A stretch of 64,000 bases of DNA from an uncultured bacterium (GTDB taxonomy: Bacteria > Omnitrophota > Gorgyraeia > Zapsychrales > Aceulaceae): assembly GCA_937930175.1 (NCBI GenBank), contig CALGLP010000022.1, positions 161,360-225,359 on the forward strand, written 5' to 3'. Within the stretch, counting starts at the first letter, position 1; each line of letters starts with the position of its first letter. The notes under the pieces are model-generated. The model was not told the DNA's origin and searched no databases. It worked only from the letters and a program-made list of their open reading frames with translations. Position numbers and translations under genes: made by a program. Of the stretch, positions 7,878 through 18,876 are shown piece after piece.

Positions 7878-7915
7878 TTGACAATGATTATTACTGAGAT
7901 TATAATTATCTCAGT
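7878..7915 (+). promoter_or_regulatory. Sigma70 promoter with an inverted repeat straddling the -10 (putative Rrf2 operator)
   Basis: -35 TTGACA 7878-7883, 17-nt spacer, -10 TATAAT 7901-7906. Inverted repeat ACTGAGAT (7893-7900) / ATCTCAGT (7908-7915). Confidence 0.55.
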
Positions 7916-7923
7916 CAAAAGGG

Positions 7924-8346
7924 TTGCACATGAAAGTTTTAACCAAAAATACAGACTATGCTATTCGCGCGCTTCTTGAGCTTTCTTTTGAAGACGAGCA
8001 TTTTATCTCAGCTAAAGAAATTGCCCAGAAGCAGGATATTCCTTATGAATTCTTGCGTAAAATCCTTAATCGTCTCATTAGGGAAGGAATCGTGATCTCA
8101 AGAGAGGGAGGACTAGGTGGTTTTCAGCTCAACCTTGCTCCTACTAAAATTAAGCTGACAGATTTGATTAGAATTTTTCAAGGTGAAATTAAGCTTTCTG
8201 AGTGTATGTTTCGTAAAAAGATTTGTCCGAATCGGAAGCATTGCGTTTTGCGCCAGAATATCTTACACGTTGAGAAGAAAGTTATTGATGAATTTCGTTT
8301 GATCACTATTGGAAGTTTAAAAAATCAAATGATAGGTAAGAAATGA
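7924..8346 (+). CDS. Rrf2-family transcriptional regulator (NsrR/IscR-like, Fe-S binding)
   Basis: Rrf2 N-terminal HTH (TDYAIRALLELS). Three Cys with C-x7-C-x5-C spacing near the C-terminus. Stop overlaps the downstream start (ATGA). Confidence 0.8.
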   Translation: MHMKVLTKNTDYAIRALLELSFEDEHFISAKEIAQKQDIPYEFLRKILNRLIREGIVISREGGLGGFQLNLAPTKIKLTDLIRIFQGEIKLSECMFRKKICPNRKHCVLRQNILHVEKKVIDEFRLITIGSLKNQMIGKK

Positions 8347-9044
8347 AGCGTAATATTATTAAAATTAATGAAGAAAAATGTAATGGGTGTGGCCTTTGCA
8401 TTCCTAATTGTCCTGAAGGCGCGCTAAAGATCGTTGATGGTAAGATTAAACTCGTTAGTGAATCTCTCTGTGATGGTCTTGGAGCCTGTGTTGGTCGATG
8501 CCCGACAGGGGCTTTGATCGTGGAAGAGCGCGATGCTCAAGTTTTTGATGAAGCGCAGGCAAAGAAAAATATGGAAAAAGCAAGAGGGCAGCCTCCGCAG
8601 GGCATGGGTGGTTGTCCAGGCTCGATGGCTAGGCAATGGAATAAGCTAAAGGGGGATACTCAGGATGTTGTTGGAAGCTCTGCCTTAGCTCAATGGCCAG
8701 TACAGTTAAAGTTGCTTAATCCCCGTGCTCCGTATTTTCAAAATGCTGATTTGGTTATAGCGGCTGACTGTGTTCCTTTTAGTTATCCTCATTTTCACGC
8801 ACGGTTTCTTAAGGGAAAGATTTTAATTATTTTTTGTCCCAAGCTTGACCATGCTAATGAAGAATATATTGAGACATTGGTTGAAATCTTTAGAATAAAT
8901 ACCATTAAGTCTCTTACGGTTGTACACATGGAAGTTCCATGTTGTTCTGGAACCCTGCACATTATTGAAGAAGCATTAAAAGAGTCTGGGAAGAGTATAA
9001 TAATTAAAGATTATACAATTTCGCTACAGGGAGAAATTATATAA
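8343..9044 (+). CDS. 4Fe-4S dicluster ferredoxin-domain protein
   Basis: CNGCGLCIPNCP and CDGLGACVGRCP cluster motifs, plus a C-terminal Cys-containing domain. Translationally coupled to the Rrf2 gene and upstream of hcp. Confidence 0.6.
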   Translation: MKRNIIKINEEKCNGCGLCIPNCPEGALKIVDGKIKLVSESLCDGLGACVGRCPTGALIVEERDAQVFDEAQAKKNMEKARGQPPQGMGGCPGSMARQWNKLKGDTQDVVGSSALAQWPVQLKLLNPRAPYFQNADLVIAADCVPFSYPHFHARFLKGKILIIFCPKLDHANEEYIETLVEIFRINTIKSLTVVHMEVPCCSGTLHIIEEALKESGKSIIIKDYTISLQGEII

Positions 9045-9137
9045 AGGTAGCTCTGCCTAAAAGGTGGCGGAGTAAACTCTGACATAGAACTTGCAAGCAA
9101 TTCGTTTCGCAAGCTATGTCGTTATTGAAGGAGGGGG

Positions 9138-10781
9138 ATGATGAGCATGTTTTGTTATCAGTGCCAGGAAACAGCAAGAAATACAGGATGTTTGGTTAAG
9201 GGTGTTTGTGGCAAAGACGAGCGTGTATCCAATTTAATGGATCTGCTCATTTATGTTTTACAGGGTATCTCCGTCTCTGCTCAGGAACTTACGCAGCCAC
9301 TCGACCGTCGATACGGCTTTTTTGTTATTAAGTCTCTTTTTGCAACGATTACCAACGCAAATTTTGATGAAGAGCGCATCGTTGCTCTTATTAAAGAAGG
9401 CTTAGGGCTGCGCGAAGAGCTCAAAAAGAAATCAGCGTGTGGTTGTTGCGGCGGCAGCTGTGTTGACGCGCTCGCCTGGTCGGGAAACAGCAAGGAAGAC
9501 ATGCTTAAGAAAGCTGCAACGGTAAGCCCATTATCGTATAGTCAAAATGAAGATATCCGTTCCCTTAAGTCTTTGCTGCTTTATGGCATCAAGGGCGCAG
9601 CAGCTTATGCAGAACATGCTGCCGTTTTAGGTGCTTATGATGATGAAATCTTTACCTTTATGTTTAAGGCGTTAAGCGCGTTGACAAAGAATTTATCAGC
9701 AGATGATCTTACGGCTTTGGTTCTAGAAGCTGGAGCTGTATCGGTGAAGGCGATGGCCCTTTTAGATGGATCTAATACAAGCGCCTATGGCCATCCTGAA
9801 ATCACAAAGGTTAATATAGGCGTTCGCAAGAATCCAGGCATCTTGATTTCTGGCCATGATCTCAAAGACATGGAGGAGCTTTTAAAGCAAACAGAAGGTA
9901 CGGGTGTTGATGTTTATACTCATAGTGAAATGCTTCCATCCAATTATTATCCCGCTTTTAAAAAATACGCTCATCTTGTGGGAAATTATGGTGGTTCCTG
10001 GTGGCATCAAAATAAGGATTTCGAAACCTTTAACGGTCCCATTTTGATGACGACTAATTGTATTATTCCTGTTCAAGATTCTTACAAGGATAGAATTTTT
10101 ACAACTGGAATGGCGGGTTATCCAGGTGTTGTGCATATTGCTGATCGACTGCCTAGCGGTAAAAAAGATTTTTCAAAAATTATTGCTTTGGCCAAGACAT
10201 GTCCGCCACCGCAGGAAATCGAGATGGGAGAAATTGTTGGTGGGTTTGCCCATCACCAGGTTCTCGCGCTTGCGGATCAAGTGGTTGAGGCTGTTAAGAG
10301 TGGAAAGATTAAGCGCTTTGTCGTTATGGCTGGCTGTGATGGACGACAGGCATCGCGCAGGTATTTTACGGATGTTGCCAACGCGCTGCCACAAGATACC
10401 ATTATTTTAACAGCTGGATGCGCGAAGTATCGTTACAACAAACTTGCCTTAGGCGATATCGGTGGTATTCCGCGTGTTTTAGATGCAGGGCAGTGCAATG
10501 ATTCTTATTCTTTGGCTGTGATTGCGTTAAAATTAAAAGAAGTTTTTGGGGTCAAAGACGTTAACGATCTGCCGATCTCTTTTGATATTGCCTGGTATGA
10601 GCAAAAAGCGGTGTGTGTTCTGTTGGCCCTTTTGCATCTTGGTTTTAAAGGGATCCGCTTAGGCCCAACCCTGCCAGGATTTTTAACACCGGGTGTTATT
10701 AAAGTTTTGGTTGAGAATTTTAACATTAAACTTGGAAGCAATGTCCAGGCTGATGTTGAGGCCATGATGGCAGGGCAGTAG
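9138..10781 (+). CDS. hcp: Hybrid-cluster protein (hydroxylamine reductase)
   Basis: N-terminal [16 protein letters not shown] cubane motif. Length about 545 aa and conserved core. RBS GGAGGGGG. Confidence 0.9.
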
Positions 10782-10803
10782 ATCCAAGAAGGAGGTAGGT
10801 GAT

Positions 10804-11844
10804 ATGCAAAAAATCGCTTTTTTTGATACTAAGCCATATGATCAAAAATCGTTTGATGCAGTTAACCAAAGCCACGGTTTTCATATCACCTACTTTCCTT
10901 TGCATCTTAATGAGGGCACCGCGACTTTAGCTAAAGGGTTTGACGTGGTTTGCGCTTTTGTTAACGATACGATGAGTAAGGCGGTTATTAGAACACTTAA
11001 AGAGGGCGGTGTTCAGCTGATTGCCTTGCGATGCGCAGGATATAATAATGTGGATTTAAAAGAGGCTTATGGGAATCTTCATGTTGTGCGGGTTCCGGCG
11101 TATTCTCCCTATGCGGTTGCGGAACATGCGGTTGCTTTGATGATGGGTCTCAATCGCAAAACCCATCGTGCTTATGATCGTGTACGCGATGGCAATTTTT
11201 CCATTAATGGTCTCTTGGGTTTTGACATGCATGGCAAATGGGCAGGGGTCATTGGTGTTGGCAAGATCGGGAAATGTTTAGTTTCCATTCTTAAAGGTTT
11301 TGGCATGGATGTCATCGTTTATGATCAATTTGTCGATGAAGCCTTTGCCAAAGAGAGTGGCGTTCGCTATGTGAGCCTGGAGTCTTTATATGCACAATCA
11401 GATATTATTTCTCTTCATTGTCCTTTGACGCGAGAAACACAGCATATGATTAACGATCAAAGCATTGCTACCATGAAGCCTGGGGTGATGATAATTAATA
11501 CGGGTCGCGGCAAGTTAATCGACACGAAAGCTTTGATCAACGGTCTTAAGACTGGTCAGATTGGCTCTGCGGGATTAGACGTTTATGAAGAAGAAAGCGA
11601 ATACTTTTTTGAAGATTTCTCGTCTTCGGTCATTGGCGACGATGTCCTTGCGCGCTTATTAACCTTTCCTAATGTTTTAATTACATCTCATCAGGGTTTT
11701 TTTACGAAAGAGGCTTTAGGCAATATTGCTGCGACAACACTTGAGAATATTGTTGAGTTCTTCAAGGGTGGGTATTTGAAAAATGAAGTTTGTTATCGCT
11801 GTGAAAAAGAATGCCGCAAGCAAAAAAAACAGCGATGTTTTTAA
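10804..11844 (+). CDS. ldhA: D-lactate dehydrogenase (D-isomer-specific 2-hydroxyacid dehydrogenase)
   Basis: NAD-binding GVIGVGKIGK motif. Catalytic region MIINTGRG..LDVYEEE and HQGFFT. Carries an unusual 14-aa Cys/Lys-rich C-terminal tail. Confidence 0.85.
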   Translation: MQKIAFFDTKPYDQKSFDAVNQSHGFHITYFPLHLNEGTATLAKGFDVVCAFVNDTMSKAVIRTLKEGGVQLIALRCAGYNNVDLKEAYGNLHVVRVPAYSPYAVAEHAVALMMGLNRKTHRAYDRVRDGNFSINGLLGFDMHGKWAGVIGVGKIGKCLVSILKGFGMDVIVYDQFVDEAFAKESGVRYVSLESLYAQSDIISLHCPLTRETQHMINDQSIATMKPGVMIINTGRGKLIDTKALINGLKTGQIGSAGLDVYEEESEYFFEDFSSSVIGDDVLARLLTFPNVLITSHQGFFTKEALGNIAATTLENIVEFFKGGYLKNEVCYRCEKECRKQKKQRCF

Positions 11845-11931
11845 TTGTAGCGTGAAGCACGCTTGCGGTCTTGACAAAAGGCCAAGGTCTGTTAGGATGA
11901 AAGAAATTAATATTAAGGGAGGTGAGTGACC

Positions 11932-12021
11932 ATGGTCGTTAAGAAGAAAAAAGCAGTAAAAAAAGCACCAGCAAAAAGAAAAGCTAAGGCAAAGAAATCA
12001 AGATCTTGCTGCTGCTGTTAA
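11932..12021 (+). CDS. Small 29-aa Lys-rich peptide ending in CCCC (not in ORF track)
   Basis: RBS AAGGGAGG 7 nt before the ATG. Translation MVVKKKKAVKKAPAKRKAKAKKSRSCCCC. Followed by a strong intrinsic terminator. Confidence 0.35.
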   Translation: MVVKKKKAVKKAPAKRKAKAKKSRSCCCC

Positions 12022-12058
12022 TAGGGCGTAGTATGTTTTGGAAGTAATTGTAAACTTT

Positions 12059-12096
12059 AAGGCAGGATTTCTTAAAAGAAATCCTGCCTTTCTTGT
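12059..12096 (+). terminator. Rho-independent terminator
   Basis: GGCAGGATTTCTT/AAGAAATCCTGCC stem followed by TTTCTTG. Confidence 0.75.
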
Positions 12097-12165
12097 AGAC
12101 ATTTGTTTAAATATGTTTTGAAATCATCGATATGGCTGATAACATCGTTTTTTTGTGAGGGTGCG

Positions 12166-12687
12166 ATGATCTTATGGCAATTGTTTCTCGTTTTTTTTCG
12201 GATTGGGCTTTTTGCTTTTGGCGGTGCGTATTCTTTTCTGCCGCTTATTCAAAAAGATGTTGTTGAGCGTTATGCCTGGCTTACCAAGGAAGAATTCTTA
12301 GAAATTTTAGGTATTGTTAAGATATTTCCTGGCGCGATTTCGGTCAAGTTTGCAACGTATGTTGGGCAGAAAATGGCTGGAACTTGGGGGGCGATTGTTG
12401 CCAACCTTGCGAATCTTTTAGCTCCGGTTGTTCTGATTCTAATTGCGACCTATTTTTATAATACTTACAAAGAAGTGCCTCAGCTGAAGAATGCCTTTGC
12501 GATGATTCAGCTAGCTGTTTTCGCCATGATTGTTGCTGTTGCGTTTCAAACAGTTAAAATGACAGATTTGATTGTGTTGAAGAATTTTTTTGTGGTTGTG
12601 GTGGCATTTGTTTTGTTTTTTGTTTTTCATGTTCATCCTGCTTTTATTCTGCTTGGGGCAGGGCTAATCGGGGCATTGCTTGGATGA
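12166..12687 (+). CDS. chrA: Chromate transporter ChrA family (short single-domain form)
   Basis: FGGAYSFLPLIQ and FPGAISVKFATYVG match the CHR domain. Only one half-size unit is present. Confidence 0.65.
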   Translation: MILWQLFLVFFRIGLFAFGGAYSFLPLIQKDVVERYAWLTKEEFLEILGIVKIFPGAISVKFATYVGQKMAGTWGAIVANLANLLAPVVLILIATYFYNTYKEVPQLKNAFAMIQLAVFAMIVAVAFQTVKMTDLIVLKNFFVVVVAFVLFFVFHVHPAFILLGAGLIGALLG

Positions 12688-12769
12688 GAGCAGGGAGATA
12701 AAGGTTTTTCGCGGAACAAGAAAATCGTGCTATGATATAGTAAATTATTTAAACCACAAGGAGGATAAA

Positions 12770-13162
12770 ATGAGCTGTGAACGTTTTGAAATGTATCAGT
12801 GTTCTCAAGATCCAAAATGTCAGTGTTTGGCCCAGATGGTTCGTGGTTGTGGGGAAGAATGCGTAATGACTTGCTGTGGGGCTCCGATGACAAAGGTGCA
12901 ATTTAAAACGGCTGATCAGGGAAAAGAAAAACATGTTCCGGTTATTGAAAAGATCGCTGGGGGTGTCAAGGTTAAGATTGGTTCTGTTCCTCACCCTATG
13001 GAGCCAGATCACTATATTGAATTTATTGAACTTCGTACAGAAAATGAAGTTTATCGTAAGTATTTAAGCCCAGGCATGGCGCCTGAAGCGGTTTTTCAGA
13101 TTAACGCTGGCAACGTCAAGGCTGTTGAGTTTTGTAATAAGCATGGCCTTTGGATTTCTTAA
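12770..13162 (+). CDS. dfx: Desulfoferrodoxin (superoxide reductase, 2Fe-SOR)
   Basis: N-terminal Cys-rich desulforedoxin-like domain. C-terminal neelaredoxin domain with the EKHVPVIE motif. RBS AGGAGG. Confidence 0.85.
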   Translation: MSCERFEMYQCSQDPKCQCLAQMVRGCGEECVMTCCGAPMTKVQFKTADQGKEKHVPVIEKIAGGVKVKIGSVPHPMEPDHYIEFIELRTENEVYRKYLSPGMAPEAVFQINAGNVKAVEFCNKHGLWIS

Positions 13163-13195
13163 CCGGTGTCATAAAATTCTTAGAGGAGGTGCCCT

Positions 13196-13609
13196 ATGAA
13201 TACTTGGATAAAAAGAATTTCTGTCACACATGCTGGGTTAGGAGTTATGCTCTTGCGGCTTTTTCTTGGGTGGGTTTTTCTTAGTTCTGGCTGTGGAAAG
13301 CTTTTTGGCTGGTTTGACGGTTCTGGTATTCAAGGATTTTCTGGATTTTTAGAGAAAATTGGCATTGGCTTTCCTGTTTTTAATGCTTATTTAGTTGGCT
13401 GGGTTGAGCTTATTTGCGGTGTCTTGCTTTTGCTTGGTCTTTGGACGCGCCTTGCCGCGATCTTTATTATCATTGTCATGGTGGTTGCGGTTCTGAAGGT
13501 GCATCCTAACAATTTTAATTATCCTATAACTGTTCTTTTGAGTGCCCTTGCCCTGATTGAGGTTGGAAGCGGAGCCTTTTCGATCGATAGGCTTTTAGCC
13601 AGAAAATAA
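13196..13609 (+). CDS. DoxX family membrane protein
   Basis: RLFLGWVFLSSG..L and GWVELICGVLLLLGLWTRLAA are typical DoxX motifs. Four TM helices. Confidence 0.75.
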   Translation: MNTWIKRISVTHAGLGVMLLRLFLGWVFLSSGCGKLFGWFDGSGIQGFSGFLEKIGIGFPVFNAYLVGWVELICGVLLLLGLWTRLAAIFIIIVMVVAVLKVHPNNFNYPITVLLSALALIEVGSGAFSIDRLLARK

Positions 13610-13630
13610 TAAAACAGCTCAAGGCTTTCC

Positions 13631-14905
13631 GTGCAATCTTTAGTAAAAAATAGAATTTTCATTCTTGGCGGAGGATTTGGCGGCCTTTATACAGCTATGA
13701 GTCTTGAAAAGGCCTTACGCCAAGATCCTTCCATTGACATAACCCTTATTAGCCAAGACAATTTCTTTCTTTTTACGCCGATGTTGCATGAAGTTGTTTC
13801 GAGTAGTCAAGGTGGTATTGCTATTGCCAATCCTATTCGCAAGCTTTTAAGGCATGCCACTTTTATCCAATCCCGCGTCGATAAGGTTGACCTTCAGAAG
13901 AAAATTATTGTAACAACGAATTTCCAGGGAAGTAAAAAAGAGTATAGTTATGATCATGTTGTTTTTGCTTTAGGGCTTGCGCCGAACTTTTTTAATATTC
14001 CTGGATTATCCCAGAAAGCTTTAACAATGAAGTCTTTGCAGGACGGGATTCGTCTTCGTAATCGTCTTATTGCGTGTCTTGAAAAAGCCAACGGCGAGCC
14101 AGATCCCGAAGCTAAGAAAAGGCTTTTGACGTTTTTAGTCGCTGGCGGAGGATTTACAGGCGTTGAGATTTTGGGTGCCATGGATGATTTCTTAAGAGAA
14201 GCAATAAGGTACTATCCTTATGTTTCCAGCGAGGACTTAAGGATGATTTTAGTTCATCTTGGCGACGCTCTTGTGCCGGAGATGCCAAAGAATCTTGGGG
14301 CTTACGTGCAGGAGAAGTTTGAGCAACGTCATGTTAAAGTAAAGCTTAAATGTGGCGTTGTTGCTGTTGAAGGTGATAAAATTATGTTGAGCTCTGGGGA
14401 ACCAATTGTGGCAGAAACGCTTGTCTGGACAGCTGGGAACACAACGCAGCGAGTCGTTGAAACGCTTGCGCTTGAAAGAAAGCAGGGGCGTATCGTGGTC
14501 AATGAATATTTGGAGGTTCCTCAGTATTCTGGCGCTTGGGCTTTAGGAGATTGCGCGTATATTCTTGATCCTAAGGGACAAGGGGCTTATCCGCCAACTG
14601 CGCAGCATGCGATTCGTGAGGCAAAAGCCTTGGCTAAGAACATTGTTTTTGTGATCAAGGGGAAGTCTAAAATAGCTTTTTCGTTCAATGCCCTAGGGTC
14701 GCTTGCTAATTTTGGGCATCAGACTGGAGTTGCCGTGATCTTTGGTTTTAAGATGAAAGGGTTTCTTGCATGGTTGTTGTGGCGCGACGTGTATCTTTGG
14801 AAGCTTCCACGACTTGAAAAGAAAATACGTGTATGGTTGAATTGGATTATGTTATTATTTTTTAAAAGAGATACGATTCAATTTCTCAAGGAAGAGAATT
14901 CATGA
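13631..14905 (+). CDS. ndh: Type II NADH dehydrogenase (NDH-2) / FAD-dependent pyridine nucleotide-disulfide oxidoreductase
   Basis: Two dinucleotide-binding motifs (ILGGGFGGLY, VAGGGFTGVE). C-terminal membrane-anchoring helices. GTG start. Confidence 0.7.
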   Translation: MQSLVKNRIFILGGGFGGLYTAMSLEKALRQDPSIDITLISQDNFFLFTPMLHEVVSSSQGGIAIANPIRKLLRHATFIQSRVDKVDLQKKIIVTTNFQGSKKEYSYDHVVFALGLAPNFFNIPGLSQKALTMKSLQDGIRLRNRLIACLEKANGEPDPEAKKRLLTFLVAGGGFTGVEILGAMDDFLREAIRYYPYVSSEDLRMILVHLGDALVPEMPKNLGAYVQEKFEQRHVKVKLKCGVVAVEGDKIMLSSGEPIVAETLVWTAGNTTQRVVETLALERKQGRIVVNEYLEVPQYSGAWALGDCAYILDPKGQGAYPPTAQHAIREAKALAKNIVFVIKGKSKIAFSFNALGSLANFGHQTGVAVIFGFKMKGFLAWLLWRDVYLWKLPRLEKKIRVWLNWIMLLFFKRDTIQFLKEENS

Positions 14906-15798
14906 AGAAAATATGGATTTTTAGCATGGCGTTTCTTTTGATAGCCAATTGCCTTGCTTCTTCGTTTGACTGGAAAGCTGCTCATGATAAAGCTGACACC
15001 TTATCTCTTGCGCAGGCCATCAGCGAAAACGAGTCGGGTGAGCAATCTGCAGAAACTCTTTATACTTTGGGTCTTGTTTATCTTAATGAATACAAGCATC
15101 TTCACGCCAAAGATGTTTTTCTAAAGATCTTAGCTCTTGATCCTAATTTTTCTGAAGCCAAATGGGGCATAGCGGAATCCTTAAGACGAGAACATCGCTA
15201 CACGGAAAGCGTTCCAATGCTTGAGGCAATTATGAAGGCAAACCCTGATTTTTCTCCGGCCTATATCACGCTTGCGTATATTAAATATGTTCAAGGAAAG
15301 TTTAATGAAAGTGTTGTTTTGGCAGGCAAGGTTATCAATCATTCACAGAAGAATGTCGATAGGGCCAATTTTTTGCGTGCCCATGGGCTTTACGCCGGGG
15401 CGAAGGGCATGATCGCCCATTATGGAGGCCCATTATCGAAAGCGATTAATGGTTCAAGCGTTCTAAAGCATCTTAATATCATTCAGAAATTAGCTCCAAA
15501 TTCGGCGGTGGTTAATTTCGGCTTGGGGAGTTATTACATGCTAACTCCTGCTGCTTTTGGTCGGAATTTAGATAAGGCGAAAGAATATTTGGAGAAAACA
15601 ATTGCCGAGGACCCGCTTTTTCCGGATCCTTATGTACGCCTGGCGCAGATTTATAAGAAAACAGGTGATGAACAGAAGTATGAAGAAAATATGGTAAAGG
15701 CTTTAGCTCTTGATCCACAAAATGAGCTTGCTTTGGATATCAAGACCGGAGCCTGTAAATTTATTTGCTTAAGCCCAAAGGAAAAAGGTGATGAATAG
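14902..15798 (+). CDS. Secreted TPR-repeat protein
   Basis: Signal peptide and repeated 34-aa TPR-like units. Confidence 0.5.
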   Translation: MKKIWIFSMAFLLIANCLASSFDWKAAHDKADTLSLAQAISENESGEQSAETLYTLGLVYLNEYKHLHAKDVFLKILALDPNFSEAKWGIAESLRREHRYTESVPMLEAIMKANPDFSPAYITLAYIKYVQGKFNESVVLAGKVINHSQKNVDRANFLRAHGLYAGAKGMIAHYGGPLSKAINGSSVLKHLNIIQKLAPNSAVVNFGLGSYYMLTPAAFGRNLDKAKEYLEKTIAEDPLFPDPYVRLAQIYKKTGDEQKYEENMVKALALDPQNELALDIKTGACKFICLSPKEKGDE

Positions 15799-17245
15799 AG
15801 CAAGAAAGAAGATTGCAGTGGTTGGTGCTGGGGTTGGTGGACTTGCGACGGCGCTACGTTTGGCTCATCGGGGATGTGATGTTACCGTGTTTGAAAAACT
15901 TTCGCAGTGCGGCGGACGTAATCATATGCTTATTGACAAGAGTTTTAAATTTGATATGGGCCCATCTTTTGTTTTGATGCCAGATTTTTTTAAGGAGGTT
16001 TTTAGGGATTGCGGAAAACAAATTGAAGATTATTTGAATCTTAAGGTTTTGGATATCAATTATAAGATCTTTTATCCCGATCATCGCGTTTTGACTGTTT
16101 TTAAAGATTGCGATAAGACAAAAGAAGAAATTGAGAGCTTTGAAAAAGGAAGCGCGGCGGGTTTTGATAAGTTTATGAAGAAAACAGAAGGGTTTTTTAG
16201 TACCGTGGCGCCGCTTCTTTATCGCTGTTTCACGGTTAAGGATATTGCAAACCCTAAAAATTGGAGCTTACTTTTAACGTTGGAACCCTGGGCAACCTAT
16301 TGGGATCTTGCCAGAAGATTTTTTAAGACTGAAGAGCTTGCTTATGCTTTTACTTTTGAGGCGATGTTTATGGGTGTGTCGCCGTTTGAAGCCCCGGGAT
16401 TTTACAGTGTGATCACCTATGCGGACCATGTTCAGAAAATTGCTCATCCCATGGGGGGGATGTATGAAATTCCAAAAGCTTTGGAGCGTTTCGCACGAGA
16501 AAAGGGTGCCAGGTTTGTTTATGATGCGGAAGTCAAAGCGATTCAGTCCCAAGGCTCTCAGGTTGCGATCGTTGTTGACGCAGAAGAACAGCTATTTGAT
16601 AAGGTTGTTGTAAATGCGGATTATTGTTATGCGCAAAGTGATTTGCTCAAGCGTCCTCTTGCGGATTATCGTTATTCGTGTTCAGTCTTTTTGCTTTATT
16701 TAGGTTTAAAGGGAAAACTGAAGGGTTTGGATCATCACAATCTTTTCTTTGCCAATGATCTAAGAAAGAATTTGCGTGAAATCTTTGAGGAGAATCAAAC
16801 GCCCCAAGACCCTTCTTTTTATGTGCATGTTCCGACGGTGACTGATCCTTCCCTTGCGCCTGAGGGTAAAGATATTGCCTACATCCTTATTCCTGTTTCT
16901 AATCTGAAGGGTCTGCAGGAGCCGTTTAGCTGTGTTGAAGAGTCTTTAAAGAAGAATGTCTTTGAGCGAATGAACGCGGTTACAGGGCAAAGAATTGAGG
17001 ATATGATCGAGGTTGCACATGCCTTTTACCCTGAGGATTTCATCACCCGATACAATCTAAAATATGCCGCGACCTTTGGGCTCGCGCATAATTTGATGCA
17101 AAGCGCATTCTTTAGGCCAGGCAATCAAGATGCAAAAGATAAAAATATTTTTTATGTGGGGGCTAGTACTCAGCCGGGCGGGGGATTGCCTGTTGTGATC
17201 GCGGGGTCCAAGATCGTTGCGGACATGATCACCTCTGAAAGATAA
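15788..17245 (+). CDS. Phytoene/diapophytoene desaturase family oxidoreductase (CrtI/CrtN/CrtD-like)
   Basis: N-terminal FAD motif VVGAGVGGLA. C-terminal YVGASTQPGGGLPVV signature of the CrtI family. Confidence 0.7.
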   Translation: MMNRARKKIAVVGAGVGGLATALRLAHRGCDVTVFEKLSQCGGRNHMLIDKSFKFDMGPSFVLMPDFFKEVFRDCGKQIEDYLNLKVLDINYKIFYPDHRVLTVFKDCDKTKEEIESFEKGSAAGFDKFMKKTEGFFSTVAPLLYRCFTVKDIANPKNWSLLLTLEPWATYWDLARRFFKTEELAYAFTFEAMFMGVSPFEAPGFYSVITYADHVQKIAHPMGGMYEIPKALERFAREKGARFVYDAEVKAIQSQGSQVAIVVDAEEQLFDKVVVNADYCYAQSDLLKRPLADYRYSCSVFLLYLGLKGKLKGLDHHNLFFANDLRKNLREIFEENQTPQDPSFYVHVPTVTDPSLAPEGKDIAYILIPVSNLKGLQEPFSCVEESLKKNVFERMNAVTGQRIEDMIEVAHAFYPEDFITRYNLKYAATFGLAHNLMQSAFFRPGNQDAKDKNIFYVGASTQPGGGLPVVIAGSKIVADMITSER

Positions 17246-18104
17246 AAGATTTTCTCGTAAATCGGTATAAAAGATAAAACAGCGCTGGTATTCTTTCGAT
17301 CATTGGCACAAAGGCACGTTGACGGTATACATCGAAATTGTTTTCTTCTATTTTTTTTAGGATTTTCGCATAAAATTCTAGGATAAGAAATGTTACTAAT
17401 TGACAGCGGGGGTTTTTGATCAGCTTGATGCCTTGGCTGGCTTTCAAGAAGTAATCACGCGCTCTTTTGATCTGAAAGCGCATAAAATCTTTGAAATTCT
17501 TATCAACGTTTTTATTTGCAATATCGTTTTCGTCAATTTGGCATTGGCTCATTTCATCTTGCGGCAGATAAATGCGTCCTCGTGCAAAATCTTCCTGAAT
17601 GTCTCTTAAGATGTTTGTTAATTGAAGCGCAAGGCCTAAATCAACAGCGCACTGTTCTGCCTGAGCATCGTTGCTCTCAAAGATTTTTAGCATCATGAGT
17701 CCAATGACGCCAGCCACACGGTAGGAATATTGATAAAGCTCTTCAAACGTTTCATAGCGATCTTTCGTTAAATCCATGGACATCCCCTTGAGGAGTTCGT
17801 CAAAGTATGCTTTCGGTATTTGGTATTTTGTGACAGTTTCCCGGAAGGCGAGCAGGAGTGGTTTTTCGATGGGGTGAGGGCCAAAGGCTTGGTTAATTTG
17901 TTCTTGAATGTTTTCAAGTTCTTGTTGTTTTTGATCAAGGTTTAAATGCATGCTGTCGACTGATTCGTCGCTCAAGCGACAGAGCGCGTAGATCGCGTAA
18001 GCCGCCAAGCGTTTTTCGCGAGGCAGGAAAAGAGATGTTATATAAAAGGTATGCGCGTTGCGTTTTGTGATGGCTTGCGCTTTTTTAAAGCCTTGGTTTA
18101 TCAT
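17229..18104 (-). CDS. Squalene/phytoene synthase family (CrtB/CrtM/HpnD-like)
   Basis: Isoprenoid synthase regions YAxCRxxDDxVD-like (YALCRLSDESVD) and YxxxVAGVIG are present. Confidence 0.75.
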   Translation of the reverse strand: MINQGFKKAQAITKRNAHTFYITSLFLPREKRLAAYAIYALCRLSDESVDSMHLNLDQKQQELENIQEQINQAFGPHPIEKPLLLAFRETVTKYQIPKAYFDELLKGMSMDLTKDRYETFEELYQYSYRVAGVIGLMMLKIFESNDAQAEQCAVDLGLALQLTNILRDIQEDFARGRIYLPQDEMSQCQIDENDIANKNVDKNFKDFMRFQIKRARDYFLKASQGIKLIKNPRCQLVTFLILEFYAKILKKIEENNFDVYRQRAFVPMIERIPALFYLLYRFTRKSFIFQR

Positions 18105-18150
18105 GGCTTCATTGTATCAAAAATGCGCTTAATCCCAAGTAAAAATTGCC

Positions 18151-18876
18151 TTGAAGCGATCTGTGATTACGGATAGAATAAAAATAACAACTATGGTTAA
18201 GGGAACGTATCTTTTTATCAATTTTGCGATTATTTTTGTTCCGCTTCTTCTTTCTTTTGAGAAAAGAGTTTTCTTTTTTCATAAGTGGTTGAGGGTTTTC
18301 TTTGCCATTGCGATCGTTGGAAGTGTTTATGTTTTTTGGGACGTCTTGGCAACGAACTTGGGGCATTGGTGGTTTAACCCGCGATATGTTTTAGGCTTTA
18401 AGATAGGAATCCTTCCCTTTGAAGAAATCCTCTTTTTTGTTACCGCGCCTTTTAGTTGTTTGTTTATTTATGAAGTGATCAGCTTTTTTCATCAGGACAA
18501 ACCATTTGTTTTTAACCGGCGTATCATGAATCTTTTGATCGTGGCGGTTTTGAGCGCTGGATTTTTGTGTCTTGGGCGGGATTATACAGCGTTGAGCTTT
18601 TGGATGCTGGGACTTTTTCTTTTTATTGGCATGACGTATTTTCGTGCGATGATTGAGATGCAAAATGTTTGGATTTATTTAGGTATTTGTTACCTTCCTT
18701 TTTCTATTTTTAATGGTATTTTGACGAGTCTTCCGATCGTGTCTTATCATCCACGCGCGATTTTGGGCTTGCGCGTTGGCACGATCCCTGTAGAAGATTT
18801 TTTTTATAACCTTGCGTACTTGGGATTTATATTGATTGTTTACAAGGCTATTTACTTTCGAGGGAAGGGTCGATAA
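18151..18876 (+). CDS. Lycopene cyclase domain protein (fused CrtYcd-type)
   Basis: Two repeats each carrying the PxEE/D motif (LPFEEILFF, IPVEDFFY) within multi-TM halves. Confidence 0.6.
   Translation: MKRSVITDRIKITTMVKGTYLFINFAIIFVPLLLSFEKRVFFFHKWLRVFFAIAIVGSVYVFWDVLATNLGHWWFNPRYVLGFKIGILPFEEILFFVTAPFSCLFIYEVISFFHQDKPFVFNRRIMNLLIVAVLSAGFLCLGRDYTALSFWMLGLFLFIGMTYFRAMIEMQNVWIYLGICYLPFSIFNGILTSLPIVSYHPRAILGLRVGTIPVEDFFYNLAYLGFILIVYKAIYFRGKGR

Follow-up and report, generated by a model that had tools for sequence, protein, structure and literature searches.

A Conserved Micro-Gene for a Lysine-Rich Peptide with a Terminal Cysteine Cluster, Located Downstream of a D-Lactate Dehydrogenase Gene in Omnitrophota

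Introduction

Nucleoid proteins rich in Lys, Ala and Pro include those with histone H1 C-terminal tails, the chlamydial proteins Hc1 and Hc2, and mycobacterial HupB with its C-terminal PAKKA repeats. The Lys/Ala/Pro repeats of the H1 tails and of the HupB C-terminus bind DNA, and H1-like proteins are known in Chlamydiae, i.e., within the PVC group. Mammalian protamine P1 is very short and extremely basic, and its cysteines cross-link neighbouring molecules, via disulfides or Zn, once these are on DNA. Adjacent cysteines occur in metallothioneins and in Cox17 (CCxC), and vicinal-Cys tails for metal or redox chemistry in SlyD, HspA, MerA (C-terminal CC) and insect thioredoxin reductase (SCCS). 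Short reading frames with cysteine runs were described in mycobacteria: the Cys sORFs Ms5788A and Rv2334A are leaderless, constitutively transcribed, unannotated and cysteine-responsive (Canestrari et al., bioRxiv 10.1101/834739).

The window analyzed in this work is a 64,000-nt stretch of DNA from an uncultured bacterium of the phylum Omnitrophota (contig CALGLP010000022.1). Its preliminary description, made from the sequence alone, pointed to a 29-codon reading frame downstream of a D-lactate dehydrogenase (LDH) gene, which encodes a Lys-rich peptide ending in four cysteines, a combination of polycation and terminal polycysteine with no described bacterial counterpart.

Structure and Expression Signals of the Micro-Gene

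The micro-ORF, as read from the sequence, occupies positions 11932..12021 of the forward strand and comprises 29 codons and a stop, its product being MVVKKKKAVKKAPAKRKAKAKKSRSCCCC. It starts with ATG at 11932 and ends with TAA at 12019-12021, preceded by four Cys codons (12007-12018). The Shine-Dalgarno (SD) sequence AAGGGAGG is located on the same strand at 11915..11922, 9 nt ahead of the ATG, and a predicted intrinsic terminator follows at 12060..12097 (+), consisting of a 13-bp stem (12060-12072/12077-12089) with a 4-nt loop and the tail TTTCTTGT. In the promoter and terminator scan this terminator fell under the threshold owing to its interrupted T-run; the hairpin was found by folding, and its stem is conserved in relatives. 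All components of the well-formed mini-gene of the preliminary description, i.e., the ribosome-binding site, the ATG and the terminator, are therefore present in the sequence. The promoter was missing from that description and was added by the follow-up: a candidate of σ70 type was recognized by consensus scan at 11871..11898 (+; 10 of 12 matches, TG present), with the -35 element TTGACA at 11871-11876, a 16-nt spacer and the extended -10 element TG-T-TAGGAT at 11890-11898.

The next gene in the window is chrA (12166-12687). A weaker promoter-like site, TTGAAA-16 nt-TG-A-TAACAT (9 of 12 consensus matches, TG present), which is a consensus match only, precedes it at 12118..12145 (+) and suggests that the downstream genes of the window apparently do not rely on read-through. 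With its own predicted promoter and strong terminator, the micro-gene is, as judged from these signals, a monocistronic transcription unit of about 190 nt, which is probably highly expressed.

Conservation of the Micro-Gene among Relatives

At least nine distinct variants of the micro-peptide, 27-30 aa in length, were found (that of the window and eight further ones). Eight of them are encoded downstream of hcp-ldh on Omnitrophota-type contigs, and one on a Planctomycetota-like contig of 54% GC in an unrelated context. Promoter, SD, ORF and terminator recur together in the further variants. The start ATG, SD, frame and stop are kept in all nine, and since the ORFs measure 84, 90 or 93 nt, every indel is a multiple of three. 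The best-conserved feature of the micro-ORF is the C-terminal Cys run, as each variant ends in consecutive cysteines (CCCC, CCCR, CCSCR or CCCCS).

The expression signals are conserved as well. CTTGACAA together with a -10 hexamer T-A-n-n-A-T is found in 8/8 Omnitrophota-type loci, while the TG extension of the -10 element was detected by the scan in the window, L002 and L086 but not in L083. Across the micro-gene loci the predicted promoter lies 34-50 nt before the ATG, leaving a leader of 27-45 nt, and the SD (AAGGAGG or AAGGGGGTGA) keeps an equal distance from the ATG in all relatives. The terminator hairpin, with a stem of 12-19 bp and its onset 22-38 nt past the stop in the nine loci, is conserved, and in six loci 4 of 14 pairs carry compensatory changes; the scan itself called it in L002 and L086.

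The micro-ORF is the sole frame open in all nine loci. Over the whole ORF pS ranged within 0.3-1.2 and pN within 0.06-0.35, pN being lower than pS in every informative pair, and for the Lys-rich body alone pN/pS was 0.15-0.82 in 35/35 informative pairs, these values being rough because peptides of so low a complexity cannot be aligned without some ambiguity. On the 54% GC contig most Lys residues are encoded by AAG instead of AAA, which points to conservation at the level of protein and not of a DNA A-tract. By these measures the amino-acid sequence of the micro-peptide is under selection.

The nine variants, 257 residues in total, are built of only 11 amino-acid types (39% K, 17% A) and lack D, E, N, Q, H, F, Y, W and L, i.e., acidic residues, aromatic residues and Leu. 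Their net charge is +11 to +16, and an A-K-K-A-P-A-K-K stretch is present. Each variant bears a single terminal cluster of 3-4 Cys (10-14% Cys) and has 3-5 Cys in its 27-30 residues.

The preliminary description left it undecided whether the ORF represents a real micro-protein or a chance frame in a K-rich spacer. Composition alone does not prove a gene: six-frame translation gave three CCCC runs in the window and eight in 584 kb of related loci, such runs being not rare because of GCTGCTGC repeats, and the evidence is consequently that of conservation. A chance ORF was rejected, as other K-rich short ORFs are almost absent from the window and about 90 related loci; the conserved frame, the excess of pS over pN and the single open frame in nine loci favour a micro-protein candidate. 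Loss of the ORF, of its ribosome-binding site or of the frame in orthologous loci had been named in advance as the observation that would speak against a gene, and all three are kept. Judged by this comparison of sequences, the micro-ORF is a real gene and not a chance ORF.

The statement that no known bacterial family has this architecture holds as well. The micro-peptides matched nothing in Pfam, NCBIfam and PDB even at E≤10; Rfam gave nothing relevant over positions 9000-15000 at E≤1. Of the two large protein searches, phmmer with a 31-aa version starting at GTG returned 0 matches among 1.84 billion representatives, as did a profile of the nine variants, padded with X, among 5.8 billion proteins at E≤10, although long K-rich proteins probably flooded the 8000 candidates of the profile search. 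Exact look-ups of the nine variants in a 15-billion-protein collection found none of them, the peptide being too short to be listed in protein databases; protein-level search is hence blind to this family and its negatives are uninformative on distribution. In three loci the gene callers had picked wrong overlapping frames at the micro-gene. The locus illustrates cleanly how a bacterial gene that is conserved and probably highly expressed can be absent from all protein resources.

At the level of DNA, a pattern scan of metagenomes gave at least 120 matches. Among those listed, at least three are true members, of which L175 was an addition to the variants known before, and the rest are chance matches. 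The same pattern gave 36 matches in viral contigs, none of them both K-rich and in frame. Extension of the search through relatives of the protein with an FHA domain encoded beside the L175 micro-gene showed that the 14-kb contig of an identical FHA protein has the micro-gene; it was not found in L253, whose FHA protein is a 63% relative. Nor was the micro-gene found beside the LDH of somewhat more distant relatives; its distribution therefore looks patchy, but these genomes could have it at another place.

Lactate Dehydrogenase and Gene Neighbourhood

The upstream neighbour of the micro-gene (10804..11844, +) encodes a D-lactate/D-2-hydroxyacid dehydrogenase of 346 aa, as follows from NCBIfam and PDB matches (5z21: E 2e-118 over residues 3-329). 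Its catalytic and NAD-binding 2-Hacid_dh domains are intact and it is similar over the full length to characterised D-LDHs, in agreement with the LdhA type. The protein ends in ...NEVCYRCEKECRKQKKQRCF, which was initially regarded as an atypical extension. Alignment revealed instead a subfamily motif conserved across many phyla: the 17-residue C-x2-C-x3-7-C-x6-8-C-[FW], here CYRCEKECRKQKKQRCF (C330, C333, C337, C345, F346; 11791..11841, +). Its four Cys are invariant in an alignment of 49 sequences, and it is present in 120 of the 121 best homologues and in all but a few of the 80 genome loci; AF2 pLDDT across the tail is ~77-79. The LdhA-type D-LDHs with solved structures (5z21, 5z20, 5z1z, 4cuj) share the full-length core but stop at about ...NEV, without the tail. 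A large multi-phylum D-LDH subfamily thus bears an uncharacterised four-Cys C-terminal motif which is not in any solved structure.

The tail and the micro-peptide were considered as a functional pair, and this was rejected: about 75 loci have the tail and lack the micro-gene, which leaves the link implied by the preliminary description unsupported. As far as the distribution of both sequences tells, the LDH tail is independent of the micro-gene.

The LDH gene is the last in the string Rrf2 / Fe-S protein / hcp / ldh, and the Omnitrophota loci have the cluster Rrf2 / Fe-S / hcp / ldh ... dfx / doxX / ndh2. Such a cluster is typical of the O2/NO-stress gear of anaerobes and fits a thiol or redox role of the peptide. 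The gene that follows the micro-gene varies: chrA in the window, DUF748/AsmA in L084 and L081, and dfx in L002, L083 and L086. In all 8 Omnitrophota-type loci same-strand genes lie 60-215 nt downstream. In L175/L251 the micro-gene is convergent with the FHA-domain gene, so that nothing lies downstream. The micro-gene is hence independent of any one neighbouring gene. Gene context is weak evidence here, given the micro-gene's own promoter and terminator, and the FHA context is unrelated to stress. The operator of the Rrf2 operon (ACTGrGA-N9-TCyCAGT) was sought in the micro-gene promoter and is absent from it, therefore co-regulation with hcp is unsupported.

Possible Function of the Peptide and Alternative Explanations

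We infer the function of the micro-protein from the features described above, and likewise that it is translated in vivo, whether DNA or RNA is its partner, and what chemistry takes place at its cysteines. The reading that we favour, with moderate confidence, is that of a stand-alone, trans-acting gene, whose product would be a disordered polycation that binds polyanions and whose clustered thiols would serve to bind metal or to cross-link by redox chemistry. The peptide of 27-30 residues would be cytoplasmic and intrinsically disordered; its Lys-rich body would hold it on polyanions, DNA in the first place and possibly RNA or ribosomes, with the Cys cluster at the extreme C-terminus as the reactive end. 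This cluster may bind a soft metal or Fe, shared among several peptides, or may form vicinal or inter-peptide disulfides upon oxidation; either reaction would cross-link bound peptides and put thiols right on the polyanion. Putative metal binding by the peptide, an idea of the preliminary description as well, is plausible. The family, structure and protein searches gave no homologue in support of the proposed partner or chemistry. If the gene is trans-acting, it would represent a new way for small anaerobes to put thiols or metals on nucleic acids.

A bolder proposal, which we consider unlikely, is that of a protamine-like "cationic thiol" of anaerobic PVC-group bacteria, whose polylysine body would coat DNA and whose CCCC would serve as a nucleoid-localised redox/metal switch. 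Under O2, NO or metal the nucleoid would then be cross-linked and compacted, or radicals at DNA would be chemically repaired and scavenged, the peptide acting alongside superoxide reductase and the hybrid-cluster protein. If true, the peptide would represent a new class of nucleoid-associated stress proteins in bacteria, with a gene invisible to annotation pipelines.

The main rival of the trans-acting gene, although unlikely in our estimation, is a polycysteine leader or attenuator, in which the strong promoter would drive a short sensory ORF. A shortage of Cys-tRNA (e.g., with oxidised thiols) would halt the ribosome at its four Cys codons and alter termination or translation so as to let chrA or dfx-doxX-ndh be expressed, the peptide being a by-product. 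The best-conserved feature of the ORF, a run of 3-4 C-terminal Cys codons, is the hallmark of the mycobacterial cysteine-responsive sORFs (bioRxiv 10.1101/834739), a terminator follows the ORF, and the same-strand genes are close behind it. Moreover, in three or four loci (L084, L086 and perhaps L081) no convincing promoter was seen in the stretch that separates the terminator of the micro-gene from the same-strand gene after it, which keeps a cis-regulatory role alive; polycysteine ribosome-stalling sensors would then extend beyond Actinobacteria and be tied to oxidative-stress genes. Against this explanation speak the absence of an antiterminator, the variable downstream genes, none of which serves cysteine or sulfur metabolism, and the one convergent context, where there is nothing to regulate. 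The hairpin was predicted in the minimum-energy fold with or without a ribosome mask on the Cys codons (9/9 loci), its onset lies beyond the reach of a terminating ribosome, and folding of the nine loci paired the Cys region with none of the downstream RBSs. Candidate promoters for the downstream genes occur in the window, L002/L003/L088 and L092; the ORF, with its strong SD and a leader, is not leaderless; and the Lys-rich body shows purifying as well as compositional selection, of which a mere sensor ORF has no need.

Other explanations assign a different product to the locus. A ribosome-associated or otherwise RNA-bound micro-protein, i.e., a lineage-specific small basic peptide of ribosomal type with its Cys in a metal site, appears improbable: a peptide so small and so extremely basic, with no hydrophobic core and with strong expression signals that look constitutive, would suit it, and the known tiny ribosomal proteins bTHX, bS22 and bL37 are comparable in size and charge, but the peptide resembles no ribosomal protein family, its neighbourhood is not related to ribosomes or translation, and its distribution is patchy-looking. 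Still less probable is a small RNA as the functional product, with the ORF incidental or marginally translated. A short unit with its own promoter and strong terminator has the classic layout of an sRNA; against this stand the perfect SD at ideal spacing, the conserved ATG and stop, the indels in multiples of three, pN below pS, an amino-acid sequence kept through the AAA to AAG codon shift, the empty Rfam search, and folding, in which the terminator is the only conserved structure. Export or modification of the peptide, be it as a RiPP precursor, as a cationic antimicrobial or, according to the membrane-targeting or acylation idea of the preliminary description, as a lipid-anchored polybasic tail, is very improbable, even if the peptide is short, cationic and Cys-containing and its DoxX neighbour scored 72 bits, below the cutoff of 80, on the model of HvfX ("Cu-binding RiPP maturation"). 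Neither a signal peptide nor a division into leader and core is visible, hydrophobic residues are too few for a membrane-active amphipathic helix, and no maturation enzyme, protease or exporter gene (radical-SAM, YcaO, lanthipeptide, MNIO/DUF692, peptidase or ABC-exporter) adjoins the micro-gene in any of the three neighbourhood types; we also know of no bacterial S-acyl or prenyl transferase system for C-terminal cysteines.

Comparison with Known Systems

With the mycobacterial polycysteine sORFs the micro-gene shares an unannotated short ORF with consecutive C-terminal Cys codons, a constitutive-looking, robust transcription (predicted here from the signals) and a position 5' of same-strand genes at most loci. 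In contrast to those leaderless frames, it is led by an SD at 9 nt from the ATG and, judging by the predicted transcription start, by an untranslated leader; it has its own strong terminator with no RBS-sequestering or antiterminator pairing found, and its polybasic body is under purifying selection. The mycobacterial type involves an RNA duplex that keeps downstream genes silent until a ribosome halted at the Cys codons opens it, whereas the predicted terminator of the micro-gene is the same with and without the ribosome mask. Whereas the mycobacterial frames head cysteine/sulfur operons, it precedes chrA, DUF748/AsmA, dfx-doxX-ndh2 or nothing. Leaders of the trpL/hisL type depend on mutually exclusive terminator and antiterminator and have their regulatory codons in segment 1, while the micro-gene has a terminator but no competing structure. 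RiPP precursors have maturation genes adjacent, and this gene has none, DoxX being below the HvfX cutoff and lacking an MNIO partner.

The cysteine cluster resembles metallothioneins, Cox17 and the vicinal-Cys tails in that a flexible terminus carries adjacent Cys with Lys or Ser on either side; in particular, KKSCCSCC of human MT-2 is close to KKSCCSCR, the C-terminus of the L081 variant. However, metallothioneins are Cys-dense, with CxC/CC/CxxC repeated along the chain and metal-thiolate clusters, whereas the micro-peptide has one terminal cluster on a polycation, and tails of the SlyD/HspA/MerA kind sit on folded enzymes, unlike this cluster. The body, in turn, resembles H1 tails, Hc1/Hc2 and HupB: it is K/A/P-rich, acid-free and presumably disordered, has the AKKAPAKK motif, and occurs in the PVC group. 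The micro-peptide nevertheless amounts to only about one or two repeat units in its 27-30 residues, shows no detectable homology to those proteins, and bears a terminal Cys cluster which they do not have. Finally, protamine P1 is eukaryotic, Arg-rich, with dispersed Cys and without evolutionary relation to the micro-peptide, which is Lys-rich and carries its cysteines at the terminus.

Genomic Context and Signals of the Micro-Gene

The micro-gene was read directly from the sequence as a plus-strand ORF of 29 codons, MVVKKKKAVKKAPAKRKAKAKKSRSCCCC, at positions 11932-12021. It is preceded on the same strand by the genes of an Rrf2 regulator (7924-8346) and an Fe-S protein, hcp (9138-10781) and the D-lactate dehydrogenase (LDH) gene (10804-11844), and followed by a lone half-size chrA (12166-12687, plus strand), the desulfoferrodoxin gene dfx and doxX, beyond which ndh2, a TPR protein gene and carotenoid genes lie on the plus strand. 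Among the loci listed by the genome scan with the LDH, the closest relatives are Omnitrophota MAGs.

The chrA product (173 aa) belongs to the chromate-transporter family; its partner half is absent, and its gene shows a few-base overlap with the dfx reading frame. Among the related loci (L-numbers), chrA occurs in only some: in L084 it is preceded by a DUF748/AsmA gene, whereas L002, L083 and L086 lack it. In the desulfoferrodoxin (12770-13162; 5442-5834 in L002), the N-terminal domain, MYQCSQDPKCQCLAQMVRGCGEECVMTCCGAPM, is unusually rich in Cys, with extra cysteines that are kept in relatives; the protein scores 132 bits against TIGR00320, under the cutoff of 146.9. Against the HvfX ‘Cu-binding RiPP maturation’ model, DoxX (13196-13609) scored 72 bits, short of the threshold of 80, and no MNIO/DUF692 partner gene is nearby. 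The carotenoid-type set adjoining the stress cluster (15788-18876) comprises a phytoene-desaturase-like amine oxidase, a phytoene/squalene synthase encoded on the minus strand and a lycopene cyclase; the Omnitrophota genome carrying it appears to be anaerobic.

The well-formed mini-gene of the preliminary description, with its RBS, ATG and terminator, was found in full in the window sequence, together with a strong promoter. The plus-strand Shine-Dalgarno (SD) sequence AAGGGAGG (11915-11922) lies 9 nt 5' of the ATG; a GTG at 11926 was ruled out as the start, the SD being too near. Scanning revealed a near-consensus sigma-70 promoter (10 of 12 matches) on the plus strand, with TTGACA at 11871-11876, a 16-nt spacer and TG-n-TAGGAT ending at 11898. 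Folding yielded a 13-bp plus-strand terminator hairpin (12060-12072/12077-12089) followed by TTTCTTGT; in the window this terminator falls under the threshold of the scan because its T-run is interrupted. A further small hairpin, AGCGTG-AAG-CACGCT (11849-11866), directly follows the LDH stop codon just 5' of the micro-gene -35 element; it is confined to the window and was not seen in relatives.

CTTGACAA is kept in all eight Omnitrophota-type loci, followed after 16-18 nt by a -10 hexamer of the form T-A-n-n-A-T, and so are the strong SD and a terminator hairpin of 12-19 bp; by the scan, the TG extension is present in the window, L002 and L086 and missing from L083. Six loci have hairpins that can be aligned, and 4 of the 14 pairs in these show compensatory changes, while the L002/L003 stem is unrelated to the others and of equal strength. 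Judged by these signals, the micro-gene is a predicted transcription unit of its own. The Rrf2 / Fe-S / hcp / ldh operon has a promoter in which a conserved palindrome, ACTGrGA-N9-TCyCAGT, overlaps the -10 element (window 7880-7915, ACTGAGATTATAATTATCTCAGT; L002 1150-1185; L086 360-400); this inverted repeat is probably the Rrf2 auto-operator. Since it was not found in the micro-gene promoter, the micro-gene seems to be expressed constitutively and not under joint control with hcp.

Conservation and Coding Potential

By itself, the CCCC run is weak evidence: six-frame translation gave three such runs in the window and eight in 584 kb of related loci, and relatives were therefore examined for conservation. 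The genome scan with the LDH supplied at least 80 loci, and the contigs on which the closest LDH homologues are encoded were added to them. Every contig with syntenic hcp-ldh ... dfx and an LDH at least ~79% identical has a lookalike gene 3' of the LDH gene, encoding MATKAKKTAKKAPAKKSCKTKKVRSCCCC (L001/L084/L085), MATKTKKRAKKAPAKKSGKTKKMRSCCCC (L086/L087), MATKKKAKKAPVKKSCKTKKSRSCCCC (L092), MATKKKAKKAPAKKRSTVKKMKSCCCC (L083), MATKAKKAAKKKVAKKSRKTAKKSCCSCR (L081/L082), MATKKKAKKTAKKKVVKKVAKKRKAKCCCR (L002) or MATKKKAKKTAKKKIVKKVAKKRKAKCCCR (L003/L088/L089). Next to the LDH gene it was not found in L090, L091, L093, L094 or L004-L080; in L091 the LDH is 79% identical and the gene order is different. 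Short K-rich ORFs are otherwise almost lacking in all compared sequences. In L090, a 481-aa LDH homologue (P0011, 474-1919) lacks the four-cysteine tail and has part of its NAD-binding region duplicated; it may have arisen as an artefact of assembly or fusion.

A degenerate DNA pattern, M-A-T-K ... C-C-C-x-stop, run on metagenome contigs gave at least 120 matches; among those listed were two variants already known and one new, in an unrelated setting (MATKKKPAKKAPAKKKAAKKKGCCCCS; L175, also L251/L252), the single one of these matches to be a member beyond the Omnitrophota synteny. On this contig of 54% GC the micro-gene and an FHA-domain gene converge; relatives of the FHA-domain gene bear the name Planctomycetota. 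The preliminary description had left open a real micro-protein or a chance ORF in a K-rich spacer; as orthologous loci keep the ORF, its frame and the strong SD, comparison of the sequences indicates a conserved micro-ORF and not a chance one.

The ORF is 84, 90 or 93 nt long across variants, so that every indel is a multiple of three, and of the six frames only its own is open in all nine variants. By Nei-Gojobori counting, pS over the whole ORF is 0.3-1.2 and pN 0.06-0.35; the dN/dS check proposed earlier gave 0.06-0.64 in pairs where computable, and in the Lys-rich body (Met and Cys block left out) pN/pS is 0.15-0.82, below 1 in 35 of 35 informative pairs, these ratios being indicative only, as the sequences are few and related and their low complexity makes the alignments arbitrary in part. 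The peptides (net charge +11 to +16) use 11 amino-acid types in 257 residues, with D, E, N, Q, H, F, Y, W and L all missing. In the high-GC member, L175, most lysines are AAG and not AAA, and the constraint therefore acts on the protein and not on an A-rich DNA tract. Taken together, a real translated gene is very likely.

Pfam, NCBIfam, PDB and Rfam gave no match. A phmmer search of 1.84 billion representatives and a profile of nine sequences run on 5.8 billion proteins returned nothing, and none of the nine peptides was present in a 15-billion-protein collection. The lack of matches is due to the short length of the peptides and not to rarity. Gene callers got the frame right in L081 only, and calls overlap it in the wrong frame in L083 (2592-2690), L092 (2047-2148) and L175 (1646-1801, minus strand), as exemplified by the public call VIDHGDKEKSKKSTGKKKIYRKENEILLLLLI, where the true 27-aa ORF is uncalled.

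The Four-Cysteine Tail of the LDH

The LDH extension, initially regarded as atypical, proved to be the local form, CYRCEKECRKQKKQRCF, of a conserved motif, NE[IV]-C-Y-x-C-x3-7-C-x6-8-C-[FW], usually placed at the extreme C-terminus (window 11791-11841). It occurs in 120 of the 121 best homologues and in essentially all of the 80 genome loci listed (L001-L080), from Omnitrophota, Planctomycetota, Spirochaetota, Neomarinimicrobiota, Fibrobacterota and others, and its four cysteines are invariant in a 49-sequence alignment. Solved D-LDHs end at about NEV without the motif, whereas the window LDH extends beyond. By sequence, D-lactate dehydrogenases of the LdhA type that end in this tail form a large subfamily spread over many phyla. 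The motif is probably a metal site; the AlphaFold (AF2) model of the tail (pLDDT ~77-79, moderate confidence; little regular secondary structure) would fit, without proving, a small metal-stabilised knuckle. Most tail carriers have no micro-gene, and the tail and the Cys-ending peptide, mentioned together in the preliminary description, are therefore independent features.

Possible Function of the Micro-Protein

Among described systems, the polycysteine sORF attenuators of mycobacteria come nearest. Their ORF, transcribed constitutively and missing from annotation, has a run of Cys at the C-terminus; ribosomes that stall there under cysteine limitation open a structure by which downstream cysteine-metabolism genes are otherwise blocked (bioRxiv 10.1101/834739). 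The micro-ORF shares the C-terminal Cys run, same-strand genes lie downstream in all Omnitrophota-type loci, and no promoter was found between the terminator and the following gene in L084 and L086. Unlike its mycobacterial counterpart, however, it is SD-led and not leaderless, and the gene downstream, which differs among loci (chrA, DUF748/AsmA, dfx), is never a cysteine gene. Plausible promoters for that gene are present in the window, L002/L003/L088 and L092, and the micro-gene of L175/L251 has nothing downstream of it. From the stop codon to the start of the hairpin there are 22-38 nt. When the loci were folded with the Cys codons either free or covered by a ribosome footprint, the minimum-energy structure retained the terminator in nine of nine, and neither an antiterminator nor an RBS-sequestering pairing was seen. 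Considering also that the peptide body is under selection, a leader or attenuator of the downstream genes seems improbable, and it is rather likely that the micro-protein acts in trans.

The micro-gene fell outside every named family whose membership criteria were tested; depending on the reading, it would be akin either to polycysteine sORFs or to small, basic proteins that bind nucleic acids. Its product would be a disordered cytoplasmic polycation, as it lacks a signal peptide and its hydrophobic residues are too few to make a membrane-active helix. Lys/Ala/Pro repeats of H1 tails and mycobacterial HupB bind DNA, and the AKKAPAKK stretch resembles them; DNA, or else RNA or ribosomes, would therefore be the expected binding partner of the peptide. 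At its C-terminus, three to four vicinal thiols after K/R-S/A/G form a cluster that resembles flexible metal/redox tails such as metallothionein KKSCCSCC, Cox17 CCxC, the MerA C-terminal CC and SCCS of insect thioredoxin reductase. One ion would be poorly wrapped by four adjacent cysteines, and clusters shared between peptides, or inter-peptide disulfides, would be the natural outcome. The O2/NO-stress neighbourhood in Omnitrophota fits such cross-linking without proving it. We tentatively propose, from composition and context, this specific combination of nucleic-acid binding and thiol clustering, which is possible rather than probable: a polyanion-bound peptide would be cross-linked by metal or oxidation, much as protamine is on sperm DNA, where cross-linking is likewise metal- or oxidation-dependent.
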